The position numbers and the translations under genes are program-made. 64,000 bases of DNA from Mobula birostris (taxonomy: Eukaryota), in NCBI RefSeq assembly GCF_030028105.1, contig NC_092372.1, positions 90,772,687 through 90,836,686 on the forward strand. Reading direction: 5' to 3'. The notes under the pieces were generated by a model. It did no database searches and was not told the origin of the DNA. It worked only from the letters and a program-made list of their open reading frames with translations. Of this stretch, positions 3,230-49,869 are shown in pieces (position 1 is the stretch's first letter; every line of letters starts with the position of its first letter).

Positions 3230-3460
3230 AACACACATCAAAGTTGCTTGTGAACACAGCAGGCCAGGAGGCATCTCTAGGAAGAGGTACAGTCGACGTT
3301 TCAGGCCGAGACCATTCGTCAGGCCTTTCGTCCTGACAAAGGGTCTCGACCCAAAACATCGACTGTACCTCTTCCTAGAGATGCTGCCTGGCCTGCTGCA
3401 TTCACCAGCAGCTTTGATGTGTGTTGCTTGAATTTCCAGCATCTGCAGAATTCCTTGTGT
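3230..3460 (+). mobile_element. Penelope-like pLTR fold-back element with 13-bp TSD
   Basis: ~95-bp inverted arms. Flanked by TTCTGATTCTTAT at 3217-3229 and 3461-3473. The arm sequence matches the 3' ends of the GIY-YIG elements at 10358-10882 and 29120-30060. Confidence 0.85.
3290..3323 (-). ncRNA. Minimal hammerhead ribozyme motif (Penelope pLTR type)
   Basis: Minus strand reads C-CTGACGA-atggtctcggcct-GAAA-cg-TC-gactg, with intact CUGANGA, GAAA and UH core. Stems I and II are imperfect in this copy. Confidence 0.6.
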
Positions 3461-3927
3461 TTCTGATTCTTATTCTATGCATAAAGGTTCATGTCATTAG
3501 ACCCTGAAAAGTTTCTTTACCAGTCTTTTCAACATAAGTTCACAGCAAAAGGAAATGGTCTACAACCTCATGAAGACAAAAATAAAAGAATAAGTTAGCA
3601 AAATAACTTCTAGGTACATCTCTTTGTTCTGATAGCTAATAGAAATGAATAGTGTCAACAATTGAAAGTTGCTGACTCTGTCGTGTGCAGGATAGTCACT
3701 TGAGAGTTTAACATGTAGATTAAGTTTCAAACACAGATTTGAGAACCACAGGAATCCAGTGCAAAACTGATCAACTATTCGATAAAACAAGCATTTCTTA
3801 TGTACCCTCCAGTTATTTTGGCATCAAATTCAAAGGGAGAAAGGAGATTTCAACCAGGAGTTCATTCTTGAGTAGGAAAAAATTAAATATGCTCCAGGAG
3901 AGTGTAATTCATGGAACTTTAATGAAT

Positions 3928-7162: not shown

Positions 7163-8269
7163 ATGGGGACATTACTAGGGGACATTGCTTTGTGGATCCA
7201 GAACTGGCTTGCCCACAGAAGGCAAGGAGTGGTTGTAGACGGGTCATATTCTGCATGGCGGTCGGTGACCAGTGGTGTGCCTCAGGGATCTGTTCTGGGA
7301 CCCTTACTCTTCGTGATTTTTATAAATGATCTGGATGAGGAAGTGGAGGGATGGGTTAGTAAGTTTTCTGATGACACAAAGGTTGGGGATGTTGTGGATA
7401 GTGTGGAGGGCTGTCAGAGGTTATAGCCGAGCATTGATAGGATGCAAAACTGGGCTGAGAAGTGGCAGATGGAGTTCAACCCAGATAAGTGCGAAGTGGT
7501 TCATTTTGGTAGGTCAAATATGATGGCAGAATATAGCAATAATGGCAAGACTCTTGGCAGTGTGGAGGATCAGAAGGATCTTGGGGTCTGAGTCCATAGG
7601 ACACTCAAAGCAGCTGCGCAGGTTGACTCTGTGGTTAACAAGGCATACAGTGTATTGGCCTTCATCAATCGTGGAATTGAATTTAGGAGCTGAGAGGTAA
7701 TGTTGCAGCTATATAGGACCCTGATCAGACCCCACTTGGAATACTGTGCTCAGTTCTGGTCACCTCACTACAGAAAGGATGTGGAAACCATAGAAAGGGT
7801 GCAGAGGAGATTTACAAAGATGTTGCCTGGAGCATGCCTTATGAAAACAGGTTGAGTGAACCTGGCCTTTTCTCCTTGGAGCGACGGAGGATGAGAGGTG
7901 ACCTGATAGAGGTGTATAAGATGATGAGAGGCATTGATCATGTGGATAGTCAGAGGCTTTTTCCCAGGGCTGAAATGGTTGCCACAAGAGGACACAAGTT
8001 TAAGGTGCTGGGGAGTAGGTACAGAGGAGATGTCAGGGGTAGGTTTTTTACTCAGAGAGTGGTGGGTGCGTGGAATGGGCTGCCAGCAATGGTGATGGAG
8101 GCGGATATGATAGGGTCTTTTAAGAGACTTTTAGATAGGTACATGGAGCTTAGAAAAATAGAGGGCTATGGATAACCCTAGCAATTTCTAAGATAGGGAC
8201 ATGTTTGGTCCAACCTTGTGGGCTGAAGGGCATGTATTGTGCTGTAGGTTTTCTATGTTCTATGTTCTA
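7163..8269 (+). mobile_element. CR1 LINE, 5'-truncated, relatively young
   Basis: ORF 7142-7426 '[22 protein letters not shown]...SKFSDDTK'; ORF 7834-8175 'GLFSLERRRMRGDLIEVYK'; (TTCTATG)n tail. Confidence 0.95.
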
Positions 8270-10357: not shown

Positions 10358-10882
10358 TGATGTCTATCCACGGCCTCCTCTACTGTCGAGATGAAGCCAC
10401 ACTCAGGTTGGAGGAACAACATCTTATATTAAGTGAGTAGCCTCCAACCTGATGGCATGAATATTGACTCCCCTAACTTCTGTTAATGCCCCACCTCCCC
10501 TTTGTACCCCATCCCTAATTTATTTATTTATTATTATTTTTTCCCTCTCTCTCTTTTTTCTCCCTCTGTCCCTCTCACTATAACTCCTTGCCCATCCTCT
10601 CGGCAAACCCTCCCCCTTTCTTTCTCCCTAGGCCCCCCATCCCATGATTCTCTCCCTTCTCCAGCCTCGTATCCCTTGTGCGGATCAACTTTCCAGCTCT
10701 TAGCTCCATCCCTCCCCCTCCTGTCTTTGCCTATCTCCTCCTCCCCCTCCCACTTTCAAATCTCTTACTACCTCTTCTTTCAGTTAGTCCTGACGAAGGG
10801 TCTCGGCCCAAAACGTTGACTGTACTTCTTCCTATAGATGCTGCCTGGCCTGCTGCGTTCACCGGGATTTTTTATTTGTGTT
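10358..10882 (+). mobile_element. Penelope-like element 3' fragment (GIY-YIG C-terminus, pyrimidine tract, pLTR)
   Basis: Sequence encoding 'YCRDEATLRLEEQHL' matches the ORF 29069-29596 C-terminus. Followed by a pyrimidine tract and a hammerhead-bearing end. Confidence 0.85.
10786..10821 (+). ncRNA. Decayed minimal hammerhead ribozyme
   Basis: AGTC-CTGACGA-A-GGGT CTCG GCCC-(A)AAA-CG-T(T)-GACT. Stem I AGTC/GACT and stem II are intact; core G (10810) and cleavage C (10817) show CpG-type transitions. Confidence 0.6.
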
Positions 10883-11214
10883 CCTTTCAAGTAGATATGG
10901 TTCTAGTTCCTCCCACCTTATGTTCTAAAACTCTGCTTTCCCAATCACACACACACTATCTGCAGTTCCATTCACTCACGCAATCTGCTGTTACATCCTT
11001 TAAACAGCGCTTCTTTCTGCTACAGCCTTTACATTCCCTCCTGCTGGAATCAAGACATTGTGAACATTGCAGGCACCTTACTGTAATTGATAAATTATTT
11101 AATGTACTCCTACATGATGGAACATGTATTCTGAGTTAAATTGAGGCCTGGTTCTTCGAAGAAATAAAAGTGCAAAAACTCATCGTAGTAATCACCTTAC
11201 TAGGTACAAGTAGA

Positions 11215-14744: not shown

Positions 14745-17348
14745 ATCTAAGTGTTTCAACAATTGATAAGTTTCAATGAAATCCCTCTTCATTCTTCTAC
14801 TGTAAACTCCAGGAAGTAAAGCCCCAGAGCTATCAATCACTCTTCACATGATTAGCCTTCTGTTCCCGGAATCATTCTCGTGAACCTCCTCTGAACCCTC
14901 TCCTACTTCAGCACATCCTTTCTTAAATAAGGGGCCCAAATTAGCTTGCAATGCTCCAAGTGAGGCCTCTCCAGTGCCTTATAAAGCATTAGCATTACAT
15001 CCTTGCTCTTGTATTCTAGTCCTCTTGAAATTAGTACTACCATTGCATTTTCCTTGCTCACTGCTGAATCAACCCGCAAATTAACCTTTCGGGAATTCTG
15101 CACAATGACGCCCAAGACATTTTCAGCTTCAGATTTTTGAATTTTCTCCCTATTTAGAAAATGGTCTACGCTTTTATGGATTCTAGCAAAGCGCATGACC
15201 ATACAATTCCCAACACTGTATTCCATCTGCCACTTCTTTGGCCATTCTCCTAATTCATACAAGTCCTGCAGCCTTTCTGCATCCTCAAAACTGCCAGCCC
15301 CTCCGCGTATCTTTGTAGTATCAGCAAACTTGGCCATAAGGCCATCAATTCCATCATCCAAATCATTGACATGCAACGTAAAAGAAGCGGTCTGTACACT
15401 GAACCCTGAGGAGCACAACTAGTCACTGGCAGCCAATCACAAAAGGCTCCCTTTTCTCTCACTCTTTGCCTCCTGTCAGTCAACCAATAATCTACTCATG
15501 CTGGTATCTTTCCTGTAATACCATGGGCTTTTATCTTGTTAAGCAGCCTCATGTACGGTACCTTGTCAAAGGCCTTCTGAAATTCCAAGTGCACATCTAC
15601 CAATTATCCTTTGTCTATCCTGCTTGTTACTTCCTCAAAGAATTCTAACAGTTCTGTCAGGCAAGACTTTCTCTTAAGGAAACCATGCTGACTTTGGCCT
15701 TTTTTATCATGCGCCTCTAAGTACTCCACAACCACACCCTTAACAATTGACTCCAACATCTTCCCAATCTCTGAGGTCAGGCTAATTGGTCAATAATTTC
15801 CTTTATTCTACTCCCTCCCTTCTTGAAGAGTAGAGTGATATTTGCAATTTTCCAGTCCTTTGAATCTATTCTTGAATCTAATGATTCGAGAAAGATTATT
15901 AATAATGCCTCCATAATCTCTTCAGCTACCTCTTTTGGAACACTGGGGTTTAGTCCATTTGGCCCAGGTGACTTATCTACCTTCAGACCTTTCAGTTTCC
16001 CAAGCATCTTCTCCGTAGTAAGAACAACTGCAATCATTTCTGCCTTCTGACTTTCCCAAACTTCTGGCATACTGCTGGTATCTTCCAGTGAAGGCTGATG
16101 CAAAATATTTAAGTTCATCTGCTATTTCCTTGCCCCTCAATGTCTCCAGTGTCATTTCTCCAGCAGTCTAATATCTACTTTCACTTCCCTTTTACACTTT
16201 ATATATCTGAAAAATCATTTGGTATCCCTTTTGATATTGTTAGCTAGCTTATGGCTTCCTTAGTTGCCTTCTATTGGTTTTAAATGCTTCCCAATCCTCT
16301 AACGTCACACTAATTTTTGCTCTATTATATGTCCTCCCTTTTGCTTTTATGTTGGCTATGATTTCCCTTGCCAGCCATGGTTATGTCATCCTTCCTTTAG
16401 AATTCTACTTCTTGGTATGTATCTATTCTGCACATCCCTAACAGTTCCCAGCAACTCCAGCCATTGCTGCTCTGCTGTCTTCCCTACTGATGTCCCCTTC
16501 CAATTAACTTTGGCCAGCTCCTCTCTCATGCCACTGTAATTCCTTTATTCCATTTTAATATGAATACATCTGTCTTTAGCTTCTCCCTCTAAAAGTGTAG
16601 GGTGTATTATATCATATTATGGTCATTTATTCCCGAGGGTTCCTTAACCTCAAGCTTCATAATCAAATCTGTTTTATTACATAGCCCCCAATCCAGAATA
16701 GCTGATCCCCGGTGGGTTCAATCACTAGATGCTCTAAAAAGCCATCTTGTAAGAATTCTACAATTTTTTTCTCTTTTCCAATCTACCTGCATATTGAAAT
16801 CCCCCAATGACTGTCAATACAGTACATTTTGATATCCTTTTTCTAACTCCTGTTGTAATTTATAGCCCACATCCTGGATACCATTTGGAGGCCTGTATAT
16901 AATTCTCATCAGGGCCTTTTTACCCTTGCAGTTTTTTAACTCTATCTACAAGGATTCTATACCTTCTGATCCTATGTCACCTCTTTTTAAGGATTTGATT
17001 CAATTTTTTTTACCAATAAAGCATTCAACCCCTCTGCCTACCGGCCTGTCCTTTAGATATAATATGTATCCTTGGATTTTAATCCCCCAATTATAATCTT
17101 CTTTCATCCATGACTCATACTTGCCAATCTCTAACTGTGCTACGAGATCATCTACTATTTCCGTAGACTGTGTACATTCAAATATAAAACCTTTCATCCT
17201 GTATCCATCACCCTTTTTGGTTTTGTTCCCTTTCTACACTGCAACTTATCCAACTGACTGCAATTTTGCCCTATCATCTGCCTGTCCTTTCTGACAGTCT
17301 CACTACACACTGCAAAGGCTTGTAAACCATCAGCCCTATTTTCAACTC

Positions 17349-17547: not shown

Positions 17548-18192
17548 AACTCTATCATTCCAGTTCCCACCCCGCTGCCAAGCTAGTTTAAACCCTCCCC
17601 AACAGCACTAGCAAACCTGCCTACAAGGATATTGGTCTCTCTCGGGTTTAGGCATAACCTGCCCCAGAAGAGATCTAGAAATCTGAAACACTGCCCCCTG
17701 CATCAGTTACTCAGCCGCACATTACTCTGCCAAATCATCTTAGTTTTACCCTCAATTGTGCGTGCCCCAGGCAACAATCCAGAGATTGCTACCCTGGAAA
17801 TCCTGCTTTTAAGTTTTCTACCTAGCTCCCCAAATCCTCTCTTCCGGACCTCCTTCGTCATTTACATAAAGGCAATAAACTTTCTGACTTCAACACAAAT
17901 GCACGTTAGTAAAATGTCTGCTTGTCATGATTTGTCATATCATGTAAACACAAAACAGTAGCTATTTTAATGATAAATTTAAATGACTAGTTTAATGGCT
18001 AGCTTTCACATTGTACAAACAAGAGTTGACAGCTTTCCCAGTCGCGGTGACTAAATGGCAAATAAATAAACCTTTGCTGTCACATCACATAATCCAGTGA
18101 ACTAGTTGGCATCAATTTTTGCAGATGCAAAGAAATAATTTCTGTAAAAGCGATCACAGTGCAGAAATATTTGTCTCTTCCCTAGGCTTCAT

Positions 18193-18590
18193 GATCTTTG
18201 AGAGTTTGAGAAAAATGTACCTTGAATTCAGACTCAGATTATAATGTGAACATTCAGATATTTAAAGAATTAATTAATCGAGTGTGTTAAATAGAGAGTA
18301 TATCTTTATCTATATACTGACAGGGATTACAAGTGGAAAATTTTTCAGAGTGTCTTATTGTTTTTGTGATTGGGTTAATAATATGAAAGTTATTTCTAAA
18401 TATTAGTGGTGAAATTGGGGAAATTGTTTTGATATTGTCACATGTACCAAAGTACAGATAAGAGCTTGTCTTGCATACCATCCATACAGATGGGCAACAC
18501 GGTAGTGTAGTGGTTAGTACAAGGCTTTACAGGCGACTCTGTTTCAATTCCCGCTGCTGCCTATAAGGAGTTTGTACGTTCTCCTTGTAA
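18193..18590 (+). repeat. Local duplication, copy 1 (copy 2 at 24231-24615)
   Basis: Colinear similarity, e.g. TGAGAAAAATGT.CCTTGAA.TCAGACTCAGATT through GAGCTTGTCTTGCATACCATCCATACAGATGGGCA. Confidence 0.9.
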
Positions 18591-18770
18591 CCATATGGGT
18601 TTCCACCGGGTGCTCCGGTTTTGTGCCACAGTCCAAAGACATACCATTGGTCATTGTAAATTGCCATGTGATTATGCCAGGGTTAAATCAGGGGATTTTT
18701 GGGTGATGCGGTTCAAGGAGCTGGATGGGCCTATTCTGCGCCATATCTCAATAAATAAATAAATAAATAA
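18492..18770 (+). mobile_element. V-SINE (HE1-like) with CR1-like tail
   Basis: tRNA-like head, V-domain GGAGTTTGTACGTTCTCC...GGGTGCTCCGGTTT...GTCCAAAGAC, and (TAAA)n tail. Confidence 0.85.
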
Positions 18771-19282: not shown

Positions 19283-19510
19283 TGTGGTAAATCATATGTA
19301 TGTTGTAACTGGGTTAACTGTCTGGACACGCCCCTCTGCTGACTGCCCCTGTGGCTCCTCCCACAGAGTCCTATATAAAGGTGTTTCACCTTGCTCCTCC
19401 CCCTCAGTCCGGGGGCAGACACTCACCGTAGAGGTCGTATTGTACAGCGAATAAAAGCCTTTCAGTATTTTACCTAACCTCAGTCTTTTGGAGTTATTGA
19501 AGGAGCTTCA
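19283..19510 (+). repeat. 5' LTR
   Basis: TGTGGTAA...GCTTCA. TATA-like TATATAAAG at ~19372; AATAAA at 19450-19455. Confidence 0.95.
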
Positions 19511-19536
19511 ATTTTATTCGCTGTACATTTTAAAGC

Positions 19537-20254
19537 ATGGAACATGTACTGAGACCCGACAAATTAGACCTCAATCCGCAAACGCCAGAATCTGGAAACG
19601 CTTTCGAACTCTGGCTGGCCTGCTTCGAAGCGTACCTAGAGGAGATTAAAGCAACCGACCCCGTAGCGAAGCTCAGAGTTCTACTCTCCAGGGTCAGTCC
19701 ACGGGTCTATTCGCTGATCAGAGACCAGCCGAGCTACGACGGTGCAATAAGCGCCCTCAAAGGCCAATACCTGCGGCCGATAAACAGCGTCTATGCTTGG
19801 CACTGCTTAGGACAAGGCAACAACAGCCCGGGAAATTGAGTGCTGAGTTCGTCCAGGCCCTACGGACGCTCGTGCGAGCCTGTAATTGCCAGGAGCTGAC
19901 GGCGGCGCAGCATGCAGAGCTTCTAGTGAGAGACGCCTTGGTCACGGGTGCCAGCGGCTGTTAGAAAAAGCCGATCTTACCCTAAGTTCGGCGATCGAGC
20001 TGGCCGACAAGCTGGAGGCCACTCTGCATAACTCTGAGGCTCTCCAGGCACGCGATCCCCCGATGGCCTCGTGGGCGCCACAGACCCCGCAACCCGCCGG
20101 CGAATCGACCTCAGCTGCCGCCAGTTGCGAGTCCACGAACTGCTACTTCTGCAGACTGGAGAAGCACCCCCGGAAACGCTGCCCGGCCCGAGAAGCTACC
20201 TGCTCCAGCTGCGGAAAGAAGGGCCACTTCGCCAAAGTCTGTAAGTCAAAAAAC
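19537..20254 (+). pseudogene. gag: Gypsy gag, frameshifted, two zinc knuckles
   Basis: ORF 19537-19839 'MEHVLRPDKLDLNPQ...'; ORF 19886-20521 contains CYFCRLEKHPRKRC and CSSCGKKGHFAKVC. Confidence 0.85.
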
Positions 20255-20273
20255 CGCGAGCGGGATCAAGCAG

Positions 20274-20425
20274 CACCGCGTGCAAAACATGGGAGTCACC
20301 ATCTTGCCTGCCGCCATCTTCCCTGCATGCCGCCACCACGTGCAAGACATGGGGGCCGCCATCTTCCCTGCCGCCATCTTCCCTGCACGCCGCCACCACG
20401 TGCGAGACATGGGGGTGACCATCTT
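20274..20425 (+). repeat. 60-bp tandem repeat (~2.5 copies) between gag and protease
   Basis: TGCAAAACAT, TGCAAGACAT and TGCGAGACAT at 20281, 20341 and 20401. Confidence 0.9.
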
Positions 20426-20430
20426 GGTCG

Positions 20431-22538
20431 GTGCCACCTCCCACCGCCTACGACCAACAGGTGCTCATGGGACACCCCACCGCACCGGACCAAGACAGCG
20501 ACCCCATCCTGGCTTCCGTGACCCTCGACCAAAGCGCTCCCCACCAGCTTACAAGGTCAATGATGGACATCCTGGTGGAGGGGCACAGGACAATCTGCCT
20601 GTTTGACATAGGCAGCACGGAGAGTTTTATCCACCCGGACACGGTGCAGCATTGTGGACTCGCGATACGACCAGCAAGTCAGGGGGTCACCATGGCTTCC
20701 AGGTCACATACAACAGACATCCGGGGGGTCGGGGGGGAGCGGGGTTGTGTAGCGGCGCTAGTGGTGCAGGGCACAGAATACAGAGAGTTTACGTTACTGA
20801 TTATGCCTCAACTGTGTGCCCCTGTTCTATTGGGGCTCGACTTCCAGAGCCACCTGAAGAGCGTGACAATGAAGTATGATGGGTCCCTCCCACCAATTAC
20901 TGTCGTAAATCCCCAGTTTTGTAGGGATACGTCACGTACCCCGCTACTAGTCGTGGACTATAGCCAGAACATCAATAGGTTCACGCAGCTCGATGCGTAC
21001 CCTTCTACCCCACATCATGGATATGGTCAATCAGATAGCACAGTACAAGGTGTACTCGACCATAGACCTAAAATCCGCTTACCATCAGCTCCCCATCTGC
21101 CGGGAGGACCGCCCTTACACCGCCTTCGAGGCAGATGGCAGGCTTTATCAATTCCTGCGCGCCCCCTTCGGTGTCACAAATGGTGTATTTGTCTTCCAGA
21201 GGGAAGTGGACCGGATGGTGGACCAGTGCCAACTGAAGGCCAGCCGCACATCCCACCCAACACCATGCCAACTACCGCACTACTGACGTCACTTGCGGCC
21301 TCTCCACCCTCAGGATCTCTCCCCTACCGCTGTTCGCCAACCTGACCCCTGACTGTAAACCTGTGGCAACTAAAAGCAGGAGGTACAGCGCGAGGGACAG
21401 AGCTTTCATTAAGTCAGAGGTGCAGCGGCTGCTCAGGGAGGGGGTCATTGAGACAAGCACAAGTCCTTGGAGGGCGCAGGTGGTCGTTGTTCGGAACGGG
21501 GAGAAGAATAGGATGGTCGTGGACCAGTGCCAACTGAAGGCCACGCTCCCATATCTGGATAACATCACCATCTGCGGTCACGACCAGCAGGATCACGACA
21601 ACAACCTCCCAAAATTTCTCCAAGCGGCCAAAGCTTTCAATCTCACATATGACAAGGACAAATGTGTATCCGGGACCACCCGACTTGCTATCCTTGGGTG
21701 TGGCGTGGAGAACGGAGTCATTGGCCCTGACCCCGACCGTATGCTCCCTCTTCCCAACACACTCGGAGCCCTCAAAATGTGCCTGGGTTTCTTTTCATAT
21801 TACGCCCAATGGGTCTCTAACTACGCAGACAAGGCCTGCCCCCTGGTCAAGTCCACCACATTCCCCCTCTCTGCTGAGGCCTGCGCGGCCTTCAACCGCA
21901 TAAAAGGGGATATTGCCAAAGTAGCAATGCATGCGGTGGATGAGGCCATTCCCTTCCAAGTAGAGAGTGACGCCTCCGACTTTGCGCTGGCTGCTACTCT
22001 CAACCAGGCAGGAAGACTGGTGGCGTTCTTCTCCCGTACCCTTCAAAGCCCTGAAATTCGGCACTCCGCGGTGGTGAAAGAGGCCCAGGTCATAGTGGGA
22101 GCTATTAGGCACTGGAGGCACTATCTCGCCGGCAAAAGGTTCACCCTGCTAACTGACCAGCACTCAGTCGCATTCACGTTTAATAACCAACAGCGGGGCA
22201 AAATCAAAAACGATAAAATTCTGAGTTGGAGAATCGAACTCTCCACCTACAACTATGACATCATGTACAGGCCTGGGAAGCTCAATGAGCCCTCCGATGC
22301 CCTATCCCGGGGAACATGTGCCAGCGCACAGATCGACCGGCTATACGCCCTACATGTAGATCCTTGCCACCCTGGGATCACTCGGCTTTTCCACTTCGTG
22401 AAAGCCTGGAACCTGTCTTACTCCCTTGAGGAGATCAGGACAATGGCCAGGGACTGCCAAGTCTGTGCAGAGTGCAAACCGCACTTCTACCGACCCGAAA
22501 AAGCACAACTAATCAAGGCCACCCGCCCCTTTGAGTGA
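20431..22538 (+). pseudogene. pol: Gypsy pol: protease, permuted RT, RNase H
   Basis: Protease 'LFDIGSTESF'; RT 'STIDLKSAYHQL...PFGVTNG' and 'PYLDNITI'; RNase H 'VESDASDFAL'; start of integrase HHCC 'LH...CHPG...CQVC'. Confidence 0.9.
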
Positions 22539-23480
22539 GTGAGTGTTGACTGTAAGGGCCTCCTTCCCTCCACCGACCGCAATGTGTACTTTCTTAACGT
22601 TATCGACGAGTACTCGCGGTTCCCCTTTGCCATCCCCTGCCCCGACACCACTACCACGTCAGTTATAAAAGCCCTGCGCAAGCTCTTCACTCTGTTCGGA
22701 TACCCATGCTATATCCACAATGACAGAGGGTCCTCGTTTATGAGTGACGAGCTGCGCCAATACCTGCTGACTAGGGGAATTGCAACTAGTAGGACCACGA
22801 GCTATAATCCCCGGGGGAATGGACAGGCGGAGAATGAGAATGGCACAGTGTGGAAAGCCACACTCTTAGCCCTCAGGTCAAAGGGACTGCTGGTCTCCCG
22901 CTGGCAGGAGGTCCTTCCCGAGGCACTCCACTCCATCCGCTCCCTGTTATGCACGGCCACCAATGCCACCCCTCATGAGCGGCTCTTTTCTTTTCCCAGA
23001 AAATCGACCACTGGAACCACCCTACCAACTTGGCTGACATCCCCGGGGCCAGTGCTGCTCCGGAAACATGCGAGGAGTAATAAATACTCCCCGATGGTCG
23101 AGAGGGTTCACTTACTTCATGCAAACCCTCAGTATGCCGATGAGGTTTTACCTGATGGGCGGGAGGACACGGTCTCCATCCGCGACCTAGCGCCCGCAGG
23201 AGCACCAGGCCCCTACCCTGAACACTCCGTGGTGACTATTAACCCCGTACCCACCGATGTATGTACCCATGGGACACCGAGCACTCCAAACCCTACACAG
23301 ACACCACACGACACTCCCATACCGGGCGCAATGCACACGCACGAGGGATTACCGACACCTAGCGTGCTGGCACCTCAAGTCAGGCCAGAGCCAGCACAAC
23401 CGCCACCGCCGATGCAATCACCACTGGTGCTACGTAGATCACAGCAACAGACTCGACCACCTGATAGGCTTAACGTGTAA
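22539..23480 (+). pseudogene. Gypsy integrase core
   Basis: 'VIDEYSRFPFA...HNDRGSSF...NPRGNGQAENENG'. Separated from upstream pol by one in-frame TGA at 22536-22538. Confidence 0.9.
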
Positions 23481-23531
23481 ATATACTTGTTGTAAATATT
23501 GTCAGTCACTTCACCCCGCGGGACTCTTTTT

Positions 23532-23548
23532 AAAAAAGGAGGGGTGAA
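23532..23548 (+). promoter_or_regulatory. Polypurine tract
   Basis: AAAAAAGGAGGGGTGAA directly before the 3' LTR. Confidence 0.85.
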
Positions 23549-23778
23549 TGTGGTAAACCATATATATACGTTGTGACTGGGTTAACTGTCTGGACACGCC
23601 CCTCTGCTGACTGCCCCTGTGGCTCCTCCCACAGAGTCCTGTATAAAGGTGTTTCACCTTGCCCCTCCCCCTCAGTCCAGGGGCAGACACTCACTGTGGA
23701 GGTCGCATTGTACAGCGAATAAAAGCCTTTCAGTATTTTACCAAACCTCAGTCTTTTGGAGTTATTGAAGGTGCTTCA
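23549..23778 (+). repeat. 3' LTR
   Basis: Direct repeat of 19283-19510. Confidence 0.95.
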
Positions 23779-23899
23779 ACAGGTGAGCTTTTATGACCAT
23801 AGAGACAATATGTTTGGATCAAGGCAAGCTAGACGCTCAGTTGGTAAATCAAATGTGCTGAGCATTTTATTATTCATTTTGTTGTAAAAACCTGTCCCC

Positions 23900-24170: not shown

Positions 24171-24230
24171 GTACCATTGGTAGAACTGATCTTTAGTGTC
24201 TCGCCCCAGTTAACTTGAAAAGGAAGCAAG

Positions 24231-24615
24231 ATCTTTGATCCTTGAGAAAAATGTGCCTTGAACTCAGACTCAGATTGTAAAGTGAACCTTCAGATATTTA
24301 AAGGATTAATCATTTGAGTGTGTTAAACTGGAGAGTAAATCTTTATCTACATACTGGCAGGCATAACAAGTGGAAACATTTTCAGTATGTCTTTTGTTTT
24401 GTGATTGAGTTAATATGGAAGTTATTTCTAAATATCACTGGAGAAATTGGGGAAGTTGTTTTGTTATTGTCACATGTACCAAAATACAGGGAGGAGCTTG
24501 TCTTGCATACCATCCATACAGATGGGCAGTGGTTAGCACAATGCTTTACAGTACAGGCAACTCTGGTTCAATTGCCGTTGCTGCCTATAAGGAGTTTGTA
24601 TATTCTCCCTGTGAC
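24231..24615 (+). repeat. Local duplication, copy 2 (includes truncated V-SINE head)
   Basis: Colinear with 18193-18590. Confidence 0.9.
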
Positions 24616-25795: not shown

Positions 25796-26303
25796 GAGAA
25801 GGGGAGGGGGGATGGGGGGTGGAGAGGAGAGGGGGAGAGGGTGGGGGAGAGGGGGAGAGGGAGAGAGGGTAGGAGGGATGGGTGGACAGAGGGGGCGAGT
25901 GGAGAAGGGGAGGGAGAAGGGGTGAGGAGAGAGGGAGAGAGAGTGGGATGGGAAAGGGAGAGGGCGAGAAGGAGGAGGGAGAGGGAGGGAGAGGGGGAGG
26001 GGAAGGGGGAGAGGGAGAAAGGGTAATGGGGAGGGGAGAGGGAGAGTGGCGAGGGGGATAGGGATAGAGGGGGAGGGGGTAGAGGGGGATAGGGGTGAGG
26101 GAGGGGAGAAGGGAGGGGGAGGGGGAGAGGAGAGGGGGAGAGGAAAGGGGGAGAAGGGAACAGGGGGAAAGAGGAGGGGGAAAGGAGAGAGGGGAGCAGA
26201 GGGGAGAGGGAGTGGTGGGGGGGAGTGGGAGGGTGAGAGGGGGGAGGGGTAGAGGGGAAAGGGGAGGGGGGAAAGGGGGAGGCGGAGGGGGAGAGGGAGG
26301 AAA
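25796..26303. repeat. ~500-bp G/A-rich low-complexity tract
   Basis: Near-pure purine on the + strand with many G3-G6 runs. Confidence 0.95.
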
Positions 26304-30425: not shown

Positions 30426-30628
30426 AAGACGAGGAATTCTGCAGATGCAGGAATTTCAAGCAACACACATAAAAATTGCTGGTGAACGCAGCAGGCCAGC
30501 CAGCATCTCTAGGAAGAGGTGCAGTCGACGTTTCGGGCTGAGACCCTTCGCCTGAAACGTCGACTGTACCGCTTCCTAGAGATGCTGCCTGGCCTGCTGC
30601 GTTCACCAGCAACTTTTATGTGTGTTGC
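30426..30628 (-). mobile_element. Penelope-like pLTR fold-back element with TSD
   Basis: Near-perfect arms GCAACACACATAAAA.TTGCTGGTGAACGCAGCAGGCCAG / CTGGCCTGCTGCGTTCACCAGCAACTTTTATGTGTGTTGC. Flanking ATGTTCTCA(C)TCCA at 30414 and 30629. Confidence 0.85.
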
Positions 30629-30796
30629 ATGTTCTCACTCCAGTTTAATTGCAGCGCAGTTTACAGATTGCTTATTCAGCCCTTGTTCCTGGCACCTGAG
30701 GCTTACTGAAAGGATTGAAAGCTAGCAAAGACAGCCAAGGTCATAGTTCAACAAGAAGTGTGGGGTGGAGGGGGGGGGGTAACTCACAGACCATAG

Positions 30797-37969: not shown

Positions 37970-39786
37970 GTTAGATACACAGTATACTATATAGTACAAC
38001 TATGAATATAGATATCCACAGCATAGTAAATTTTAAATTGTTCCATTCAAGCCTAAAGACTTAATCACTGTGGAGTATTTCTTAATCTTTTGGGATAATG
38101 TCTTTCCTTATTGGAGGGGGCAATGCTTGCTAGGTGAGACTTGTGGCTGTGAAACAATCTCTCAGGTTCTGGGCATCTTCCGTGATGGTTGTAGGAGTTG
38201 ACTCTGAGACTGCAAGAAGTGGTTCTGACAGATCCATTTCTGACAGGTGTCCCTGGCCACCTTTCTTCTCTAATAGTTGACTCTGCTCTTCTCAACTGAT
38301 TAATGTGTCACGCCAGATGACATCAGATGCAGTCTCCACTGTGTAGGAGACTAGTCCAGTTCTGTCCATAACCTTGCCAAATACTCACTTTTGATCACCT
38401 CTGTAGTCCCTTGCCAGGACTGCTTGTCCAGGAGTGAAACATTGAACCTCCTTGTTTGAGGAACCATCAATATGTCTCACCTACTTGTCCTGCATACTCC
38501 TTCTGACATTGGGTTTGAGGAGATCCAAGTATGAACGGAAGGGACAACCCAGGAATAGCATAGTTGGTGAGTTGTTGGTTGTGGAGTGTCTACATTGCGA
38601 TATGCAAAGAGGAAACTAGTTAGTTTTTGATTCCGTGTTCGAGTAGTGTGTTCTGCTGACATTGCATGCAATGCATCCTTTAGACTCCAGACAAAACTTT
38701 CTGCCAAGCCATTTGTGGCTGGGTGGTACAGTACAGACGTAATAAGTATGTCTTAATCCATTCATTTTCAGGAATGAATGAAACTGATCTGCAGCAAAAT
38801 AGGGTTCATTGTCATGAAGTGTACTGGAACACCAGACATTGACAGAGTCTTCTCAACACATCAACAGTATGTGAGGCTGCAGTGGAGGCTGTTGGGCACT
38901 TCTGGCCATTTTGTAGCTTCATCCACGACTATTGAGAAATTTGTGCCCTGAATGGCTAATAAAATCCACATGAATCCTCTGCCAGAGTTGAAACAGTGTG
39001 GGGTCTTTTCTGGTTTCCTTTGGATCATCTCTACCATAATAGCGAGACTTTTGATTTGTATTAGGTAGAATATGTCAAGAGGAGAGTCCTCTTTTCTAAA
39101 TGTTTCAGGTATTTCCTTTTCCAACTGGTCAATGGGACAATCTACCAGCAGTTCCATGATTACTTGTCTGATTGAATTCAATCTTGTAATTGTGTCTCCA
39201 AGAGATAGAGCCCATCTCTGTAATGGTTCTGCTGCATGTGTAATACTCTTCTATGGATTCAAAAATAGACAGCAAAAATGGTTGATAATCAATATTGAGG
39301 GTAAACTCTCTCCTGTTCAAGTACTAGTTGAAACGTTTCATACCCCAAACCATACTCGAGGCCTTTATGTCAATCTGTGAATGATTTCTGTCTGCAGTGG
39401 TAAACGAACGTAATGCAAAGGCAATGGGGCATTCACTTCCATCACTCATAACATGTGACATGACTGCACCTAGACCACAAGGAGAGGCATTGCTGGCTTG
39501 TTTCACTGGTTGATGTGAATAATAATGTGTGAATACAATGTGTGACCTTTTGAAAGCCACCGCACATTGCTTTGTCCTTTTCCATTTCTTCCTGATCTTT
39601 AGGAGTGAGTTCAAGGAGTGGAGCACAGTAGTCAGGTTTGGCAGGAACCTGTTATAATAATTGACAAATACTATAAAGAACCACAACTGTGACACATCCT
39701 TTGGCATTGGGGCATCCACCACTGCTTGAATTTTCTCAGCACACTTGTGTAATTCTTGTGCATCAGTGCTGTGATCACAGTAGGTG

Positions 39787-41028
39787 TGTCATGGTCCAGA
39801 TTGGGGTCCCTTTAAATTTACCTTGTTTATATTACGATCCGGACCGTTGATTCCCTGTTTTCCCGTGTCCCTTGACTTTGGTGATTAGAGGCAATTAACG
39901 CTCGGCTGAACCGGTAGTTTATAATCTCCGGCTTTCAGCTGTTCGGCGCGGGAGCGTCTGCAAAGTCACCAAGGTGCAGCGTGCCAATGTCATCTGGCCA
40001 GAGCAAACCTAGTCTCCGCCCGAAGCGAGTGCCGGTAATTCATCCTTCCTTACCGGAGCTACCCTGTCAAGTTACCCCGCTAAAGTGAGCCTGCAAAGTT
40101 TCCTCACCGAGATGGGTCCGTCAGTTAGTCTGCCGGAGGGAATCAAGAACCGCTGTCTACTGTTCCCGGGCCGAATCGAGAGCTCACCACCTCCCAGAAG
40201 CACCAAGTCAAGTCCTGGCTCTGGCAGCATTCAAGCACCAAGTCAAGTACTGTCCCTGGCGGCTTCCCAGTTCTGAGTCAAGTCCTGTCCCTGGCGGTCT
40301 GTGATTCCTGTCCTACCCCCTTGTCTGAATCCCTTCTCTGCCCCTCTCACCTCTAGACCTCGTCTGCAGCCCCTGCCTGCACTTCGGTCTAGTTCCATCG
40401 CCGGAGCTAGATAGGTACTGTCTGGTGTTCACTCATGTTGGTCTTGTCTTGTCTTGTCCTCACCTCCGTGGGGTAAGTCTGGCCATCTCGTCATTGCCCT
40501 GCAGGGAGTCATGTCTTGTCTTGTCCTGGCCTCTTCTCCGTGGGGTAAGTCAGGCCGTCTTGCCGTTACCCCGCAGAGGGTCATGAGTTCCGGCCCTATG
40601 TCCTGTACCCAAGGAGGGGCCCCGGCTCTCTGTTCTGTGTATGTGTCCATAGTTCCATGTACCTGCTCTCCCGAGACCGAGGCTCTGTTTTCCATGTTCC
40701 TCCTCTCCCGAGTCCATGTCATGTCCATGCCTGGTTCTGGGGTCCGAGCTCGAAGCAAGACCCAGGTACTGGGTCCTTGCTCAGTCTCGGGCTCAGAGTC
40801 CATACCCTAGCCTCTTCATGTCTCCTCTAGTTCTGGGAGCCGATTCTGAGTCCTAGCCCAGACCCTTGGTCCCAGCCTAGTCATAGTCCTGAGTCCTTTT
40901 CCTGCTCACTATTCCTGCTTCTGTCTTGCTCTCCTGGTATCGTACAATAAACTAAACCTAAGTAACCTCACAAAATGTGTTTTGCATTTGGGTCCACCCT
41001 TGCTCCCAAAGTCTCTGCCATTGTGAAA
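39787..41028 (+). mobile_element. Solo LTR, 1242 bp, nested in Gypsy RT
   Basis: TGTCA...TG(A)AA termini. 5-bp TSD AGGTG at 39782-39786 and 41029-41033. AATAAA at 40946. The host RT motif PSITYC is restored when this is removed. Confidence 0.9.
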
Positions 41029-42705
41029 AGGTGATGCTTGGTTAAAGAATTCATACCTCTTGCATCATTCTCTGAGCCCATAATCTTCTAATCTTTTTAA
41101 CACTGTCTTGATTTTTTGGAGATATGCCTTGTCATCCTCACTGGTAACAATGCCATCCAGATAACACTGAGATCTTGGCAGACTTGCATCGCTTCCTGCC
41201 CAAGTGTAGGTGCAGATGTTACTCCAAAACTTTTGGACTTTTCTTCCAGCTCCATCTATAGGTAGACCTCAACCAAGTCCACTTTGCTAAAGTGCTTACC
41301 TCCAGAAAGGTTTGCAAAGGTATCAATTATCCTAGGCAGAGAGTATTGATCTACATTCAGGAGTGGGTTAAAATGACCACAAATCCTGATGGATCAATCT
41401 TTCTTGGCTGCTGGAACCACTGACATTATACATGGGCTCCACTCAAACCTGGAATTAAAACATTTAGCCGCCATGCAATCTAGCTCAGCTGACAATGTTC
41501 TCATGCATGGTATAAGGAACTGGGTGGGTTTTGTAAAACATAGGTGTGGCATTTTCATTTAACACTATTTTATCCTTGACATGTCTGTGTTTTCCATTTC
41601 CATCCCCGAACACTGCTGTGGCATCATCCTGTACCTTTTTTAATTTGCTTTCAGCTGAATCTATTGCAGGGGTCATGGCATGCAAGTGGTGGATGGATCT
41701 CCAGTCAAGTTGTAGTCGTCTCAGTCAATCACAGTCCCACAATGCTAGTCCTGCAGTTTTCACCACATACAAGCCCAATGTGCTTTGTTGTTATATTTTG
41801 CTTTTATGAATGGCGTTCCCACAGGAGTGATCATTTCTCCAGTATAATTTCTTAGTTGAATATCTGCAGGAAAATGCCATTCAAACTCATTTTGTGGAAT
41901 GACTGAAACAGCCGAGCCAATGTCCTGTTCACTTCTGGTGTAAGCTATATCACTTGTCTATTGCTAATTTTCACATTGTTACTCACAAGGCTACAAAGTC
42001 CTGTTTCATTCTCATTATTGTCAGATTTTCCATCAACTGCATGCAGATTAGTGCTCTTTTTTAAAACACCAACTTGAGTTTTTCTTTTTCTCTTCCCTGT
42101 GCAGTCATTTATTGCTCTTTGTATGTGTCCTACTTTGTTGCAGTTTCTGCAAGTTACGCCCTTAAACATACTTTGGTCTGGTGTATGTAAGCCCTTGGCA
42201 CAACTGTAACACAATTTGTTAGACCAGACTGGTTTCTACTTAGATGTTGCAATTTTGTTCATGCTCAACTTCATCCCTGACTGCAACTCTATTGCGTCTC
42301 TGTCTTCTGTTTCCATTGATACAATTTCAACTGCTCTTTTACATGAGAGTTGTGTTTCAGTTGGGAGTCATTTTTGAATGCTTTCTTGTAAGTTTCCACA
42401 AACCAAATTATCTCTCAGTGCATCCTTAAGTCTATCACTGAACTGACAATGCTTGGACAATTTCTTCAGTCCAGCCATGTAAGATAAAATAGACTCACAT
42501 TCCTTTTGATCCTGCTTATGAAACCAAAAGCTTTCTGCAGTTAACAATAGTTTCGGTTCTAAATATGCCTGTATTACATTCACAATATCAGCAAAGCTAA
42601 TTTTGGCTGTTTTTTTGGAGCAATTAAACTTTTAAGCAAACTGCATGTTTTTCCATATGCTTCACTCGGCATAATTGGCACATTTCTTATCTGCTATTCC
42701 ATTTG

Positions 42706-43470
42706 TTCTTACGAGGATGTAATCGAGCTGTTTCCTGTAGATGGAGGCTCTGTTTTCATATGTCCACAGTTTACCAGCTTGCTTCTTGAATTGTGTGTTG
42801 GTGGCAATGAGACTGTGTTCCTGGATAAAATCAACTAGATATTGTCCACTTCTGTTGGTAAAGTCTTGGTAAGAGTATGGAACATCTTCCACTCTGACCT
42901 GGGCATTAAAATCACCGAGCACAGCCAGGAAGTTATGTGCCGGTATTGAAGTGACAGCTTTGTGAAGTTTACTGTAGAAGGCCTCCACCTCCTTCTCCTC
43001 GCTGCAGTTGTGCGGGGAGTAACAGATGATGACAGAGGTCGCCGGGTTTCCATCGAATTCCGCAGTAGGGATTCTGTCACTGACTGAGACTACGCTCCTT
43101 AGTGCCTCCTTCACCTTGCAGTTCAACATCAGCCCTACTCCACCTTGTGCTGACATCGTCGTCGACTCTCTCCATGCAGACGAGGTGATGAGGTGCATCC
43201 CCTCTACCTCTGTGAACCTTATCTCTTCGTCAGGGTGTACATGACGGTGTTCTTGGATCCCCAGGATGGAGATCTCGTAGCTGCTTGCCTGTGATGCCAA
43301 CTCTGTGCATCGAGGCAAGGGGTGGATGGTGTTTGCGTTGAAGGTTGAGATGATCGTTTTTATCTTACAGAGCAAAAGAGGCGCAGTTTGCTCAGTCCCC
43401 TTGTCGGACTCAACCCTCCCCGTGGGGTTTGAGATTGCATCTTCATACTGCCTGTCTAGGCCAGGGTCTG
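42706..43470 (-). pseudogene. Inverted AP-endonuclease segment of the RTE LINE
   Basis: ORF 42662-43492 'ISTFNANT...ILGIQEHR...GGVGLML...VLGDFNAQV...QLDYILVR'. Confidence 0.92.
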
Positions 43471-45676
43471 GGCGTAATTGTGTGATCAACACAGAAGCCT
43501 ACAGAACCTTCAGCTCGGTCAGTCCTGACCACAGACTAGGGTCAATGCAAGTGAGACTGAGCCTGTGGCAACCCAAAGCCACAGGTCCCAAGGAGAAGAT
43601 AGACTGGAAGGCATTCTCCTCACAACCTATTCTTCAAGCCCAGTACACAGTGGAGGTGAGAAATCGCTTCGGCCCACTGGAAAGGGGGGGAGGAAGAGAC
43701 TGCCACTAACCGCTATCAACGGCTCATAGATGCACACACAGATGCAACAAAGAGTTTGTTTACTGTGAAGCGAAACAAGAAGAGTCGGATCTCGAAACAT
43801 CCTGACGTTGTCGCAGCAAGAAGTGTGGTCAATGCTTGTCATGCCGAATTTAGAAGGACCGAAACAGAAGAGCTAAGAGACAAGTTTAAGACAGCAAAGA
43901 AGAATCTCTTTGCCACCTATGACCGACTGAAGGAAAAGGAACTAGCTGAGAGGATTAGAGAGATAGAAGCCGCTAATGAAGACATGCAGCATGGAGAAGC
44001 ATGGCACCTAGTCAGTGAGATCAGTAGATGGAAGAAGTCCCCATCAGGTCAAATAAGTGGTAAAACAGCAGAGGACCACGTCCTGACATGGTTTACCCAC
44101 TTGAAGAACCTGCTGGGAAGCCCTCCAACGATCACGGAAGAAGAAGAGGACATACTCACGATACTAACGCAAGTTGACATCAATGACGCCCATTCACCAT
44201 TGAAGAACTGAAGGCGGCAAAATATGCACTCAAACAGGGCAGGGGTGCTGGACCAGATGGAATACCACCAGATGTCCTGAAGAACTGCGACTTGGATGAC
44301 ATCTTGCTGGACATATGTAATACGGCGCTGATAAAAGGCGACAAACCAGAACAGTGGTCACTCTCAAGCGTTACTCCAGTCCCCAAGTCTGGATCCCTCA
44401 CAAAGACAGATAACTACATGGTATCAGCTTGACCTGCATCTTAGCAAAGTTATACAATCGGATGATCCTGAACAGGATTCGCACTGCCATTGACCCTAAG
44501 CTAAGATTCAATCAGAATGGTTTTTGGCAGAAGCATACAACGGTAATGCAAATACTTGCTCTCCGTATGATCATCGAGGAAGTCAAGAAGAACAACCTAC
44601 CAGCCGTGCTTACTTACATCGGTTTTTGCAAAGCTTTTGACTCCATTTACCGAGGTAAAATGCTGAAGATCCTGAAAGTTTACGTAGTGCCAGACCACCT
44701 ACTGAGAGCAATAGAGTCCAGCTATAGCAAAACCATAGCGAAAGTCATATCACCAGACGGAGAAACAGCAGTGTTCGAGCTCCTAGCTGGTGTGCTGCAA
44801 GGAGACACTCTGGCACCCTACATCTTTATAATTGTCCTTGATTACGCTCTGCGACAAGCTACCAAAGATCATGACAAGCTTGGTTTTACCATAAAACCAG
44901 GGCGAACCAAAAGGGTCAGACCAGTTACACTCACAGATCTCGATTTTGCAGATGACATAGTCCTGCCCTCTGACCAGGCGGAGGAAGCACAGCAGTTACT
45001 GACAAAAGTGGAAATAGAATGCAATAAAGTTGGACTTCACCTGAACGCTAAAAAGACAGAGTACATGGTGTTCAACTGTGACAAAGGTACGCTCAAAACC
45101 GTAGAGAATGATACCATTAAGAATGTCTTTGACTACAAGTACCTCGGGTCAAGAATGATGAGTTCAGAGAAGGACATAAAGATACGGAAGGTGCTGGTGT
45201 GGAGGGCTATGAACGACATGAAGGAACTCTGGAAGTCCAACCTGACCGGAGGGCTTAAAAAGAGGATTTTCAAAGCAGTCATAGAGTCCATTCTCACGTA
45301 CGGATGCGAGACGTGGACACTCAGCAAGATGATGTGAAAGTCTCTAGGTGGTTGCTATACACGAATACTCTGGATGGCTCTTGATGTGAGTTGGCAACAG
45401 CACATGACAAACGTCGAGCTCTATAACAACCTACTGATTCTCACCACTAAAATCGAGGCCAGAAGACTGCAACTAGCGGGGCACTGTCTACGCCACCCCG
45501 AGCTACCTGCCAGCTTAGTCATCATATGGGAGCCCAAGCATGGGAGGATGAACCCTGGGCGCCCTCCCAAGACTATGGTCAACACGCTCCTAGAAGACAG
45601 CGGCGTGGCTAATGTAGATGAACTGAACACACTGATGAGGGAGAGGGAGAGGTGGAGAGTCTGTCATTGTGCCTAA
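43471..45676 (+). pseudogene. RTE ORF: APE C-terminus and RT, frameshifted
   Basis: 'RNCVINTEAY...SPDHRL'; ORF 44429-45337 'NQNGF...KAFDSI...GVLQGDTLAP...DFADDI...YKYLGS...YGCETWTL'. Confidence 0.92.
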
Positions 45677-47959
45677 CTCTGGACCCCTAGGCCTGAGTCG
45701 ACGTAGTAGTAGTAGTAGTAGTATTCCATTTGCTTTAAAATACTGTTCAATTTGTTCAGTATACATCATCCAGTTATTTGTTGTGCAATCAAGCACATCC
45801 ATATTTCTGGTGGAACCAGCCATTTTCTGTTTATTTATTTATTATTAATTAATATCACCCAGTACTCACTGTTTATGAACCTGTGAATTTCATCAGTTTT
45901 CTGCCTTTTTTAAAAAAAAGTGTTGACTGTCTCTATCCTCTTCCGAAGAAACACTGTGATTTTTTAAAACACGAATGTCCCTCTCCACTTTCAAAGGAAA
46001 AAGATATATTGCACTTCAATACTTAAGTGGTTGTCTCAGGTTTGTTTTAAAACTTCCTAATAATCACTTTTATGTTTTGTAACTTCAGGAACCAATCGAA
46101 CAAAAAACACAGCAACCCAGATGAGGGTCAACTTAGTTTCTCTACTTTAGTAAGGCACGCACATTTGACGTGGTGTCATAATGATACATGCCATTCACAT
46201 GCTTCTTACATAAAACAAAGAATACTTAATAATCAATGTTACTATAATAAAATCCCAATGTTACTATAATATTTCTGAAGTATTAAATGCACTACATCTT
46301 CCTTTTCCCTTTTTTTTAGCCAGTTGGTGATAGGAATTCAGCTGGAGGCTCTCCCACGTTTGGTTAACAAACTCCACACTTGGAAACTGGACAATGATAA
46401 TGCTACCTATTACACAGCTCTCCTGAGTTTGCTTCTTTGACCATACTAACTTACTAATTTAATTAATGTTTTGTTGGAGTGTGTACAATCATAAAATTGT
46501 GATGAAGAATCTTGATCAGAGACAGGAGATGTCAATGACTTGAAGCAACTTGGCATGGGTTGGCCATCCCACGAGAAATCAGAAAAGCTTTCATGGTGTA
46601 TACATGATATTATTAACTGATTGTGTTGACTTTTACCAAGTGTGCTAGATTTTAACAATGCTTTCCTGAGACACCATTTAGCCCCAGAGATAAGACTTTA
46701 CAAGACAGATATGGAGCTCACTGCAGGTTATTGATTTCTTTTGGTCTGTTTGTGTAACAAAGGCAAAAACCAGAGATGTGCATTTCACTTCCAGGAACAG
46801 TAGAAGAAATTGAATAGAAGGTGGCAGACTACTTGGCTACTGGTGATAGAAGGAGTGATTTATATACACAAAAGCCACTACAGATCTTAGTCACAGGGCA
46901 GCAAGTAGACAGCAGAAATCAATTTAGATAGACTTTAAAATGTCAGGTTTAACTCTCCTACGTCCTAAAGCAGGCAGAGAGCATCTGTGGTTATTCAACC
47001 AAATCAGACATCATCTTCTTAGTAAAAAGAAACTATTTTAGTCATATAAAATCTCTATATATGTCTTAAACAATAATCTTTGTTATGCCTCACTGCAGAA
47101 CATTCAGTAGCAAACAGAATGTTCTACTGAAAGCAACTAAAATTCATACAAGGTAAATTTAATATCATAAAAAGTGTGATGCCAGAAATATCAAAAAGGT
47201 CACAGAAGTCTCATTTTATATTTTCTCTTGCTAATATGATTTCCTTTCAAAACCTTTCCACAGCTATGTTGATTATGACTGTGATGAATGATAGTTCGAC
47301 TTTGATCTCAATCTGACTGTGCTTATTTTAATATAGCACAGTACACAACATTTCTTACAGTCTGACTGGTATGATTGCCTAATTATCTTCTCCTGTCATT
47401 TTACCTACTTTATAGAATGTACTATTTGTATAGTCTAAAACCATATATAATATGAAATTGTTGGAAAATTACTTTATTAAAATGGTAAATGTTACTTTTA
47501 TTTAGATATTTAAATATGAAACATGCAAGGAAGAGAACACGAATAAGGTTATAGATCTATAACCCCATTCAGTGTATACATTAGTCAAATCACAGCCAAT
47601 TCCATTTTACTTTTTTCCTCATATGGAGTTTAATGATACTGTTATAATAAATAGAGAAAAACAACATAATTAATTAATGATAATGATCAGATTGAAATAT
47701 ATTTTTCCAGAGAGGTTTCAGAGCATTATAGGTACAAGGCAGAGAGATTATTAAGAAAGCAAATAAGGCAGACAAATTGCATCCACCAACTGTTTCCAAT
47801 AGCAAAGGGATGAACTACTGGTGAATCTATTTTTTATGATATTTATTTTAGCAAGAGCAAATGAAAAAGGAGCAGATTATCTGATAATACCATTGGATGT
47901 TCCATATCCACAGAACAACTGGAAATGAAACACCAGATTTTAGCTTAATATTACAACTG

Positions 47960-48134: not shown

Positions 48135-48660
48135 ATGGACAAGTGCATGAAAGTACAGGTGCAATGAAAAGTTTACTTGCAGCAGCATCACAGGCACAGC
48201 ATTCACAAGAAGTATAAATTAGCAAAATAAGTTGTACACAATTATACAAGAAAGAACATAATTAGAACAAAAGAAGTCTATTGTAATGCAATGTGGTCAA
48301 AGGGTTCATAGTGTTGGTATTCGAAGATAGTGATTAGGGCTGTACATTTTTGTTCAAGGGTTTGTTGATAGCTGTGAGAAGATGGTATGGCCCAGATGAT
48401 GGAGATCTTTGATAACAGATGATACTTTCTTGAGGGAGAGCCTCATATAGATACTACCGTTAGTGGAAAGGGATGTGCTTATGATGCAGTGAGCTGAGTC
48501 CACTAATTTTTGCAGTTTTTTATGTCCTACAAATTTGAATTGCCTTACTAGACCATAATGCGATTTGTCAGGACACTTTCAAAGCACATCTATAGAAATT
48601 TGTTCGAAGGCTGATGATATGCTGAAACACCTCCTGCTCCTAAGAAAGCAAAGATGCAGG
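48135..48660 (-). mobile_element. Rex1/Babar LINE remnant
   Basis: Similar to 116-715 (TTACTTGCAGCAGCATCACAG). Minus frame 'HLCFLRSRRCF'. Confidence 0.6.
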
Positions 48661-49650
48661 TGCTTAGTCACATCCTCAAAAAATTCAATCAGGCTCGTAA
48701 GGCACGACCTGCCTTTCACAAAGCCATGCTGACTGATCCTAATCATATTATGCCTCTCCAAGTGTTTACAAATCTTGCCTCCCAGGATCTTCTCCATCAA
48801 CTTAACAACCACTGAAGTAAGACTTGCTGGGCTATCTCTACTCCCTTTCTTGAATAAGGGAACAACATCCGCAACCTTCCAATCTTCCAGAAACTCTCCC
48901 GTCACCATTGATGATGCAAAGATCATTGCCAGAGGTTCAGCAATCCCCTCCCTCGCCTCCCACAATAGCCTGGGGTATATTTTGTCCGGTCCTGGTGACT
49001 CATTCAACATGATGTTTTCCAAAAGCCCCAGCACATCCTCTTCTTTAATATCTACATGCTCAAGCTTTTCAGTCTGCTGTAAGATCCTTTTCTGTAGTGA
49101 ATACTGAAGCAAAGTACTCATTAAGTACCTCTGCTATCTCCTCTGGTTCCATACACACTTTCCCACTGTCACACTTGATTGGTCTTATTCTCTCATGTCT
49201 TATCCTCTTGCTCTTCACATACTTGTAGAATTCCTTGGGGGTTTCCTTAATCCTGTCCGCCAAGGCCTTCTCATGAGCCCTTCTGGCTCTCCTAATTTCT
49301 TTCTTAAGCTCATTCCTGATAACATTAGATCTCTATCATTACCTAGTTTTTTGAACTTTTTGTAAGCTCTTTATTTCTTCTTGACTAGGTTTACAACAGC
49401 CTTTGTACACCATGGTTCCTGTACCCTACCATCCTTACCCTGTCTCATTGGAACGTACCTATGCAGAACTCCATACAAATATCCCCTGAACATTTGCCAC
49501 CTTTCTTACGTATATTTCCCTGAGAACATCTGTTTCCAATTTATGCTTCCAAGTTCTTGTCTGATAGCCCATATTTTCCCTTACTGCAATTAAACACTTT
49601 TCTAACTTGACTGTTCTAACTTGCCTCTCCAATGCTATGGTAAAGGAGAT
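48660..49650 (-). mobile_element. CR1 LINE internal fragment
   Basis: Minus ORFs 48579-49121 ('SPGPDKIYPRLL...DWKVADVVPLFKKG...QHGFVKGRSCLT') and 49069-49263. Confidence 0.92.
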
Positions 49651-49869
49651 AGAACCCACGAACACTATCTCACTTTTTAAAAAAATATATTGTTTCTGTT
49701 TTTGCACATTTTTAGTCTGTTCATTATACAAATATTCTTCCTGTAATTGATTTACTTATTTATTTATGACCTTATATTGCATTGAACTGCTGCTGCTAAG
49801 TTAACAAATTTCACGACACACGCTGGTGATAATAAACCTGATTCTGCCTCTGATTGTGCGTTCAGAAAT

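Follow-up and report, generated by a model that had tools for sequence, protein, structure and literature searches.

An RTE-like LINE copy in the genome of Mobula birostris carries its 5′ part in reverse orientation, and this arrangement is in all probability best explained as a single insertion by twin priming. The copy lies within a window (the whole stretch of DNA that was analysed, 64,000 nucleotides, in whose positions all coordinates are given) and occupies the 3,016 bp between two copies of a target-site duplication (TSD). The features of the locus are as follows.

42683..42685, plus strand: a TTT triplet upstream of the TSD (positions -12 to -10), which fits the split target signature of RTE-related elements and is weak when taken alone in AT-rich DNA
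42695..42705, plus strand: left copy of the TSD, 11 bp, first letter T
42702..42705, plus strand: 5′-junction microhomology, formed by the last 4 nt of the TSD, which can pair with the RNA of the family immediately 3′ of the inverted piece; putative second priming site
42706..43470, minus strand: inverted 5′ piece, 765 bp, containing the N-terminal extension and the larger part of the APE domain, free of stop codons and ending in LDYILVR
43471..45703, plus strand: forward piece, containing the APE C-terminus, the linker, the reverse transcriptase, the C-terminus and a short 3′ UTR
43471..43475, no strand assigned: head-to-head inversion junction, with microhomology of at least 1 nt and probably up to 5 nt
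45704..45721, plus strand: 3′ tail, a (TAG)6 microsatellite
45722..45732, plus strand: right copy of the TSD, 11 bp, the same as the left copy

The 64-kb window contains exactly two instances of the 11-mer TATTCCATTTG, one at 42695-42705 and the other at 45722-45732, and none on the opposite strand; the two copies are identical at 11 of 11 bp and cannot be extended on either side, and at any one position this 11-mer would be expected with a probability of 5e-7. The initial annotation of this DNA, made from its letters, had proposed a single 11-bp TSD around the insertion, and the perfect, non-extendable repeat at both ends bears this out. Its description of about 765 bp of minus-strand APE ending LDYILVR, succeeded by plus-strand RNCVINTEAY, agrees with the pieces found at 42706-43470 and from 43471 on (RNCVINTEAY is read on the plus strand from 43473), and the junction that it had put near 43470 is placed at 43470/43471. 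The inverted piece is itself 5′-truncated, lacking the 5′ UTR and about the first 21 codons (the related protein P0001 begins 21 residues upstream). At the other end of the copy, the two letters that follow (TAG)6 are the first two of the TSD, a 3′ microhomology of 2 nt. The reverse transcriptase of the forward piece is recognized by a match to RVT_1 (E 1e-25), and the frame changes near 43690, 44190 and 44420, together with in-frame stops, indicate a dead copy. When the window was compared with itself, the element turned up only this once; the window also contains no paralogue that would span the empty site, and a search against Rfam gave no matches.

The architecture of the family and the signature of the insertion make membership in the RTE clade likely. 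Elements of the RTE clade are not known to have an RNase H domain or a C-terminal CCHC knuckle. The long relatives of the copy (n=72) encode one protein each, of 943-1091 aa, and a C-terminal CCHC pattern is present in 0 of the 72; among four relatives that were scanned with Pfam, all have APE and reverse transcriptase hits and none has a hit to an RNase H family. None of the protein matches listed bears the name of an RTE element; a frequent annotation among them is craniofacial development protein 2-like, a name that we take to be linked to the RTE endonuclease. The TSDs of RTE elements peak at 10-12 bp according to the available text of PMC4245944 and PMC6007223, and RTE-related retroposons are described in the latter as tending to end in a microsatellite tail, to show 1-2 nt of 3′ microhomology and to have a TSD that begins with T, with roughly three Ts around position -10. 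All of these traits are found here, as (TAG)6, an 11-bp TSD with T first, TTT at -12 to -10 and 2 nt of 3′ microhomology, and the length of the TSD and the T-rich signature are consistent with a cut by an RTE endonuclease. Vingi and L2-2 likewise have a single ORF, as stated in the available part of PMC13708176.

The two pieces are adjacent and non-overlapping in the proteins of the family: residues 22-272 of P0001 align to the minus-strand piece and residues 276 onward to the plus-strand piece, and in the full-length protein P0005 the corresponding residues are 47-297 and 301-1039. The residues T-K-W(-R-N-C) run across the break in seven of eight Mobula proteins, and the eighth stops earlier. 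Contigs from sequencing runs were aligned over 42200-46200 (assembled contigs only, from 4 of the 23 listed runs), and directly before 43471 three contigs of run X4 have the loose letters TAAGAACAAAAT, of which one contig of run X8 has a longer version; these letters comprise the last part of the inverted piece and 6 nt more. As both the proteins and the contigs, the latter from two related ray-like organisms, are continuous across the break, other copies are collinear and the studied copy is 6 nt short at that point. The loss amounts to 6 nt, or to 2 nt once the microhomology is counted, in keeping with the remark of the initial annotation that almost nothing had been lost at the breakpoint.

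The inverted piece shares about 83-89% identity with proteins assigned to Mobula hypostoma and M. birostris, and the reverse transcriptase is 82% identical to a protein of Hypanus sabinus; judged by the element alone, these matches point to a batoid host. The APE remnant of the forward piece is 72-84% identical to Mobula proteins over short stretches (31-81 aa), as against 83-87% for the inverted part, a slight deficit that counts against a single insertion. When compared with the contig pieces listed, which are the longest among more than 40,000 and thus a non-random sample, the inverted part has 275 differences in 2350 positions (11.7%, 8 pieces) and the forward part 464 in 4251 (10.9%, 20 pieces); in these listed pieces the divergences do not differ (Mann-Whitney p 0.82). 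On these comparisons both pieces are from one family, with a resolution at the level of the family, above that of the subfamily. The initial annotation had named different subfamilies or extensive overlap as what would speak for two insertions; the two pieces hit the same proteins, have no overlap and are similarly divergent.

A head-to-head arrangement would also result from two insertions by members of this family, if the later one had entered the 5′ end of the earlier in antisense orientation. The family is abundant and nested copies are possible; the summed depth of the contigs rises strongly toward the 3′ end of the family. A second insertion, however, would be expected to bring its own 3′ end, tail and TSD, all of which are missing from the inverted piece, and would have to abut the first to within 6 nt in an element of about 3.3 kb, for which the chance is roughly less than 1%. 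The TSD common to both pieces and their similar divergence also weigh against such a pair of events, which is extremely improbable.

The twin-priming explanation calls for a site at which the target end could anneal to the RNA, and such a site is suggested by the 5′ junction. Of the six letters lost, four correspond to the final four of the TSD read in reverse complement, and the chance of a TSD-end match of at least 4 nt is 0.007. The boundary implied by the ends of the X12 contig alignments is 42702, and six of seven Mobula proteins align through to 42704. The initial annotation had predicted a 7-nt match of the target to the K-W codons; complementarity at T-K-W is indeed present, but it is perfect for only 4 nt (42702-42705), and a perfect 7-nt primer match was rejected because the sequence of the family carries one more A. 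With this extra A, the end of the TSD pairs at 7 of 8 positions with one bulge. When the retained pieces were scanned separately, perfect matches to the TSD end were 5 nt long at most, and one other bulged 7-nt match was found, at 44513; the priming site that was used would thus be among the best available.

At the inversion junction, R-P-D-P-G is encoded by the minus strand of the window across 43474-43460, in frame with the same residues of P0001, and at least one base is shared between the two sides because the Pro codon of P0001 fixes one. The alignment of one X4 contig reaches at least 43475, whereas those of X12, X8 and X1 extend no farther than 43473, 43472 and 43471, respectively. The sequences thus suggest, indirectly, an inversion-junction microhomology of up to 5 nt.

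Short inverted matches at both junctions would also be expected if an ordinary 5′-truncated insertion had later had its front inverted by microhomology-driven repair or template switching in DNA, and the copy, at about 11% divergence from other copies, is old enough for this to have happened. Nevertheless, a later inversion would need one of its breakpoints to fall precisely on the edge of the TSD. A clean crossover retains both copies of the match, and here the inner one is gone with the 6 nt that are missing; as the junction sequences are read, moreover, the two microhomologies are in the wrong order for a single inverted repeat. A later inversion is accordingly considered unlikely.

Twin priming, which the initial annotation had offered as its interpretation, is supported by the combination of one TSD, an inverted 5′ part, the adjacency of the pieces, microhomology at the priming site, a shared family and similar divergence. 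In the proposed sequence of events, the endonuclease would nick the bottom strand and reverse transcription would start at the (TAG)n tail of the RNA, aided by pairing over 2 nt. Cleavage of the top strand, 11 nt away, would precede the completion of first-strand synthesis, and the freed end of that strand would anneal to the same RNA within the endonuclease coding region (4 nt perfectly, 7 of 8 with the bulge) and prime a second cDNA toward the 5′ end of the RNA. The first cDNA would reach the primer-bound site or stop slightly before it; the forward piece starts at the last bases of the stretch that the primer would cover, which fits an annealed primer that blocked the first strand. Synthesis of the second cDNA would cease some 21 codons from the start of the ORF, and the ends of both cDNAs would then be linked, in all likelihood by complementarity of up to 5 nt. 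We infer the order of these events, the priming on RNA and the length of the inversion-junction microhomology from the anatomy of the junctions.

An assembly artefact, in which a chimeric read or a mis-join of repeats flipped the 5′ part, would account for the absence of the junction from the listed contigs. None of the listed contig pieces bridges 43470/43471 or either copy of the TSD, nor do they contradict these junctions, and the 15 joints listed (there are 510 further joints) include none of the empty-site type. At 42827, 42849, 43165, 43320 and 43434 the whole contig depth in runs X1, X4 and X8 shows a letter other than that of the window, so the studied copy is not visible in those runs. 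The right flank is nearly exact in X1 (1 difference in 316) and in X4 (2 in 336), and for X1, X4 and X8 either the insertion is absent from the samples or it was dropped by the contigs. Absence from contigs is weak evidence for an artefact, since rare variants of repeats get dropped, and a mis-join would have no reason to respect a perfect TSD, the adjacency of the pieces in the family to within 6 nt, or the microhomology with the target. A fold-back duplication, furthermore, was not found at the locus in the sequence of the window. An artefact is thus very unlikely, and the twin-primed insertion is preferred. Both flanks of the insertion (42200-42650 and 45733-45950) are repeats of high depth in the aligned contigs.

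That twin priming operates in this chondrichthyan RTE-like family generally appears to be supported, by one copy. Further candidates were sought in metagenome contigs, where 80 loci of distant relatives (40-65% aa identity) were collected, none of which belongs to the ray family itself; none of 29 candidates in genome contigs and none of 38 in viral contigs was a related locus. One of the 80 loci (L014:1-230) has a head-to-head arrangement in which a minus-strand APE piece abuts a plus-strand reverse transcriptase, the junction joining about residue 105 (minus) to residue 623 (plus) of P0032, with 84-91% identity to P0032; its far end is missing, and it is either a second 5′ inversion or a chimera. 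Minus-strand hits at two other loci (L018 and L078) are weak (22-32%) and were read as unrelated LINE remnants, not as inversions. Of the 80 loci, 15 were retained by a filter for truncated copies that are informative and have upstream flank (L014 is outside this set), and an inverted part was present in none of the 15. A contig of X1 has an opposite-strand joint from 44490 to 45065 with 2 shared letters, possibly belonging to another inverted copy of the family.

The window contains several other repeats. Decayed reverse transcriptase fragments of two other LINE types are located at 4757-5305, 7172-8172, 14906-16049, 48582-50927 and 55831-58089; from their motifs we take them to be CR1-like and L2-like, and quick mapping revealed no head-to-head arrangement among them. 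An LTR-retrotransposon-like element at 19283-23779 has 230-bp direct repeats that are 94% alike (19283-19511 and 23549-23779) and encloses remnants of a protease and an integrase; outside it is a second pair of repeats that are 83% alike (18190-18591 and 24227-24615). An RNase H-like remnant of another LTR retrotransposon is present on the minus strand at 39327-39788. A short repeat family with palindromic copies (3230-3461, 10784-10886 and 30426-30631) has matches on both strands and resembles a small DNA transposon. A purine-rich low-complexity repeat of about 500 bp, with G and A on the plus strand, occupies 25800-26303.

If the copy arose by twin priming, it implies early cleavage of the second strand and internal priming, presumably without ORF1p. 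As a natural copy of an RTE-like element that combines an 11-bp TSD with twin-priming junctions, it would also support overhang length, not clade, as the permissive factor. We suggest tentatively, as a proposal somewhat more doubtful than probable, that twin priming is routine in RTE-clade LINEs and gives rise to several percent or more of their long insertions, that it proceeds by an early second-strand cut and by bulge-tolerant internal priming without ORF1p or poly(A), that the primer sets the stop of the first cDNA, and that the ability to invert follows TSD length (at least 10 bp) and is not peculiar to mammalian L1. For the host, a single dead copy has no evident function. Gene-writing tools derived from RTE-1 are described in the available part of PMC13708176, and inverted payloads would be a by-product worth looking for in such tools.

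The twin-priming model was reportedly put forward by Ostertag and Kazazian in 2001 for 5′-inverted human L1. In the model as given by Kojima in the available text of PMC2912911, one end of the target primes at the 3′ end of the RNA, the other anneals internally, and the cDNAs join at short complementarity; 5′ microhomology of 2-5 nt is reported there for about 70% of inverted human L1 insertions. According to the available text of PMC4245944, 5′ inversion in cell assays was nearly confined to the combination of L1 and human cells, on both of which it is taken to depend, and overhangs of about 5 nt were suggested to be too short for it. Chimeras of the twin-priming type are described only with L1 in the sections available of PMC4476161, and in those of PMC5389967 and PMC3747384 the topic appears in the reference lists only. 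No report of 5′-inverted RTE copies was found in a literature search to which the key papers were out of reach.

With human twin-primed L1 insertions, the copy shares one TSD that encloses inverted 5′ and forward 3′ segments, 5′-junction microhomology within 2-5 nt and perhaps microhomology at the inversion junction (up to 5 nt is suggested here); its TSD of 11 bp falls inside the range of 10-20 bp found for inverted human L1 inserts. It differs from L1 in that the element is RTE-like, with a single ORF and presumably no ORF1p in the architecture of its relatives, in that it ends in (TAG)n where L1 has poly(A), in that its 11-bp TSD is preceded by a T-rich signature where L1 has a TTTT/AA site, and in that its host is a batoid. 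With RTE-clade LINEs it shares a TSD of 10-12 bp with T first, Ts about 10 nt upstream, a microsatellite tail, 1-2 nt of 3′ microhomology and, from its relatives, APE and reverse transcriptase in one ORF of about 1,000 aa, and it is set apart from them by its 5′ inversion, which the available texts of PMC6007223 and PMC4245944 do not report for RTE. The closest parallel outside L1 in the sources compared is one 5′-inverted insert of Nimb-2_DR in chicken DT40 cells, described in the available text of PMC4245944, which likewise belongs to a non-L1 LINE, with a TSD peak at about 12 bp, and which indicates that the event is not unique to L1; that element, however, is of another clade and was inserted in an engineered assay, in contrast to the natural germline copy described here. 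The mechanism is thus already known from L1 and one Nimb insert, and the RTE-like element of M. birostris probably adds a new case.
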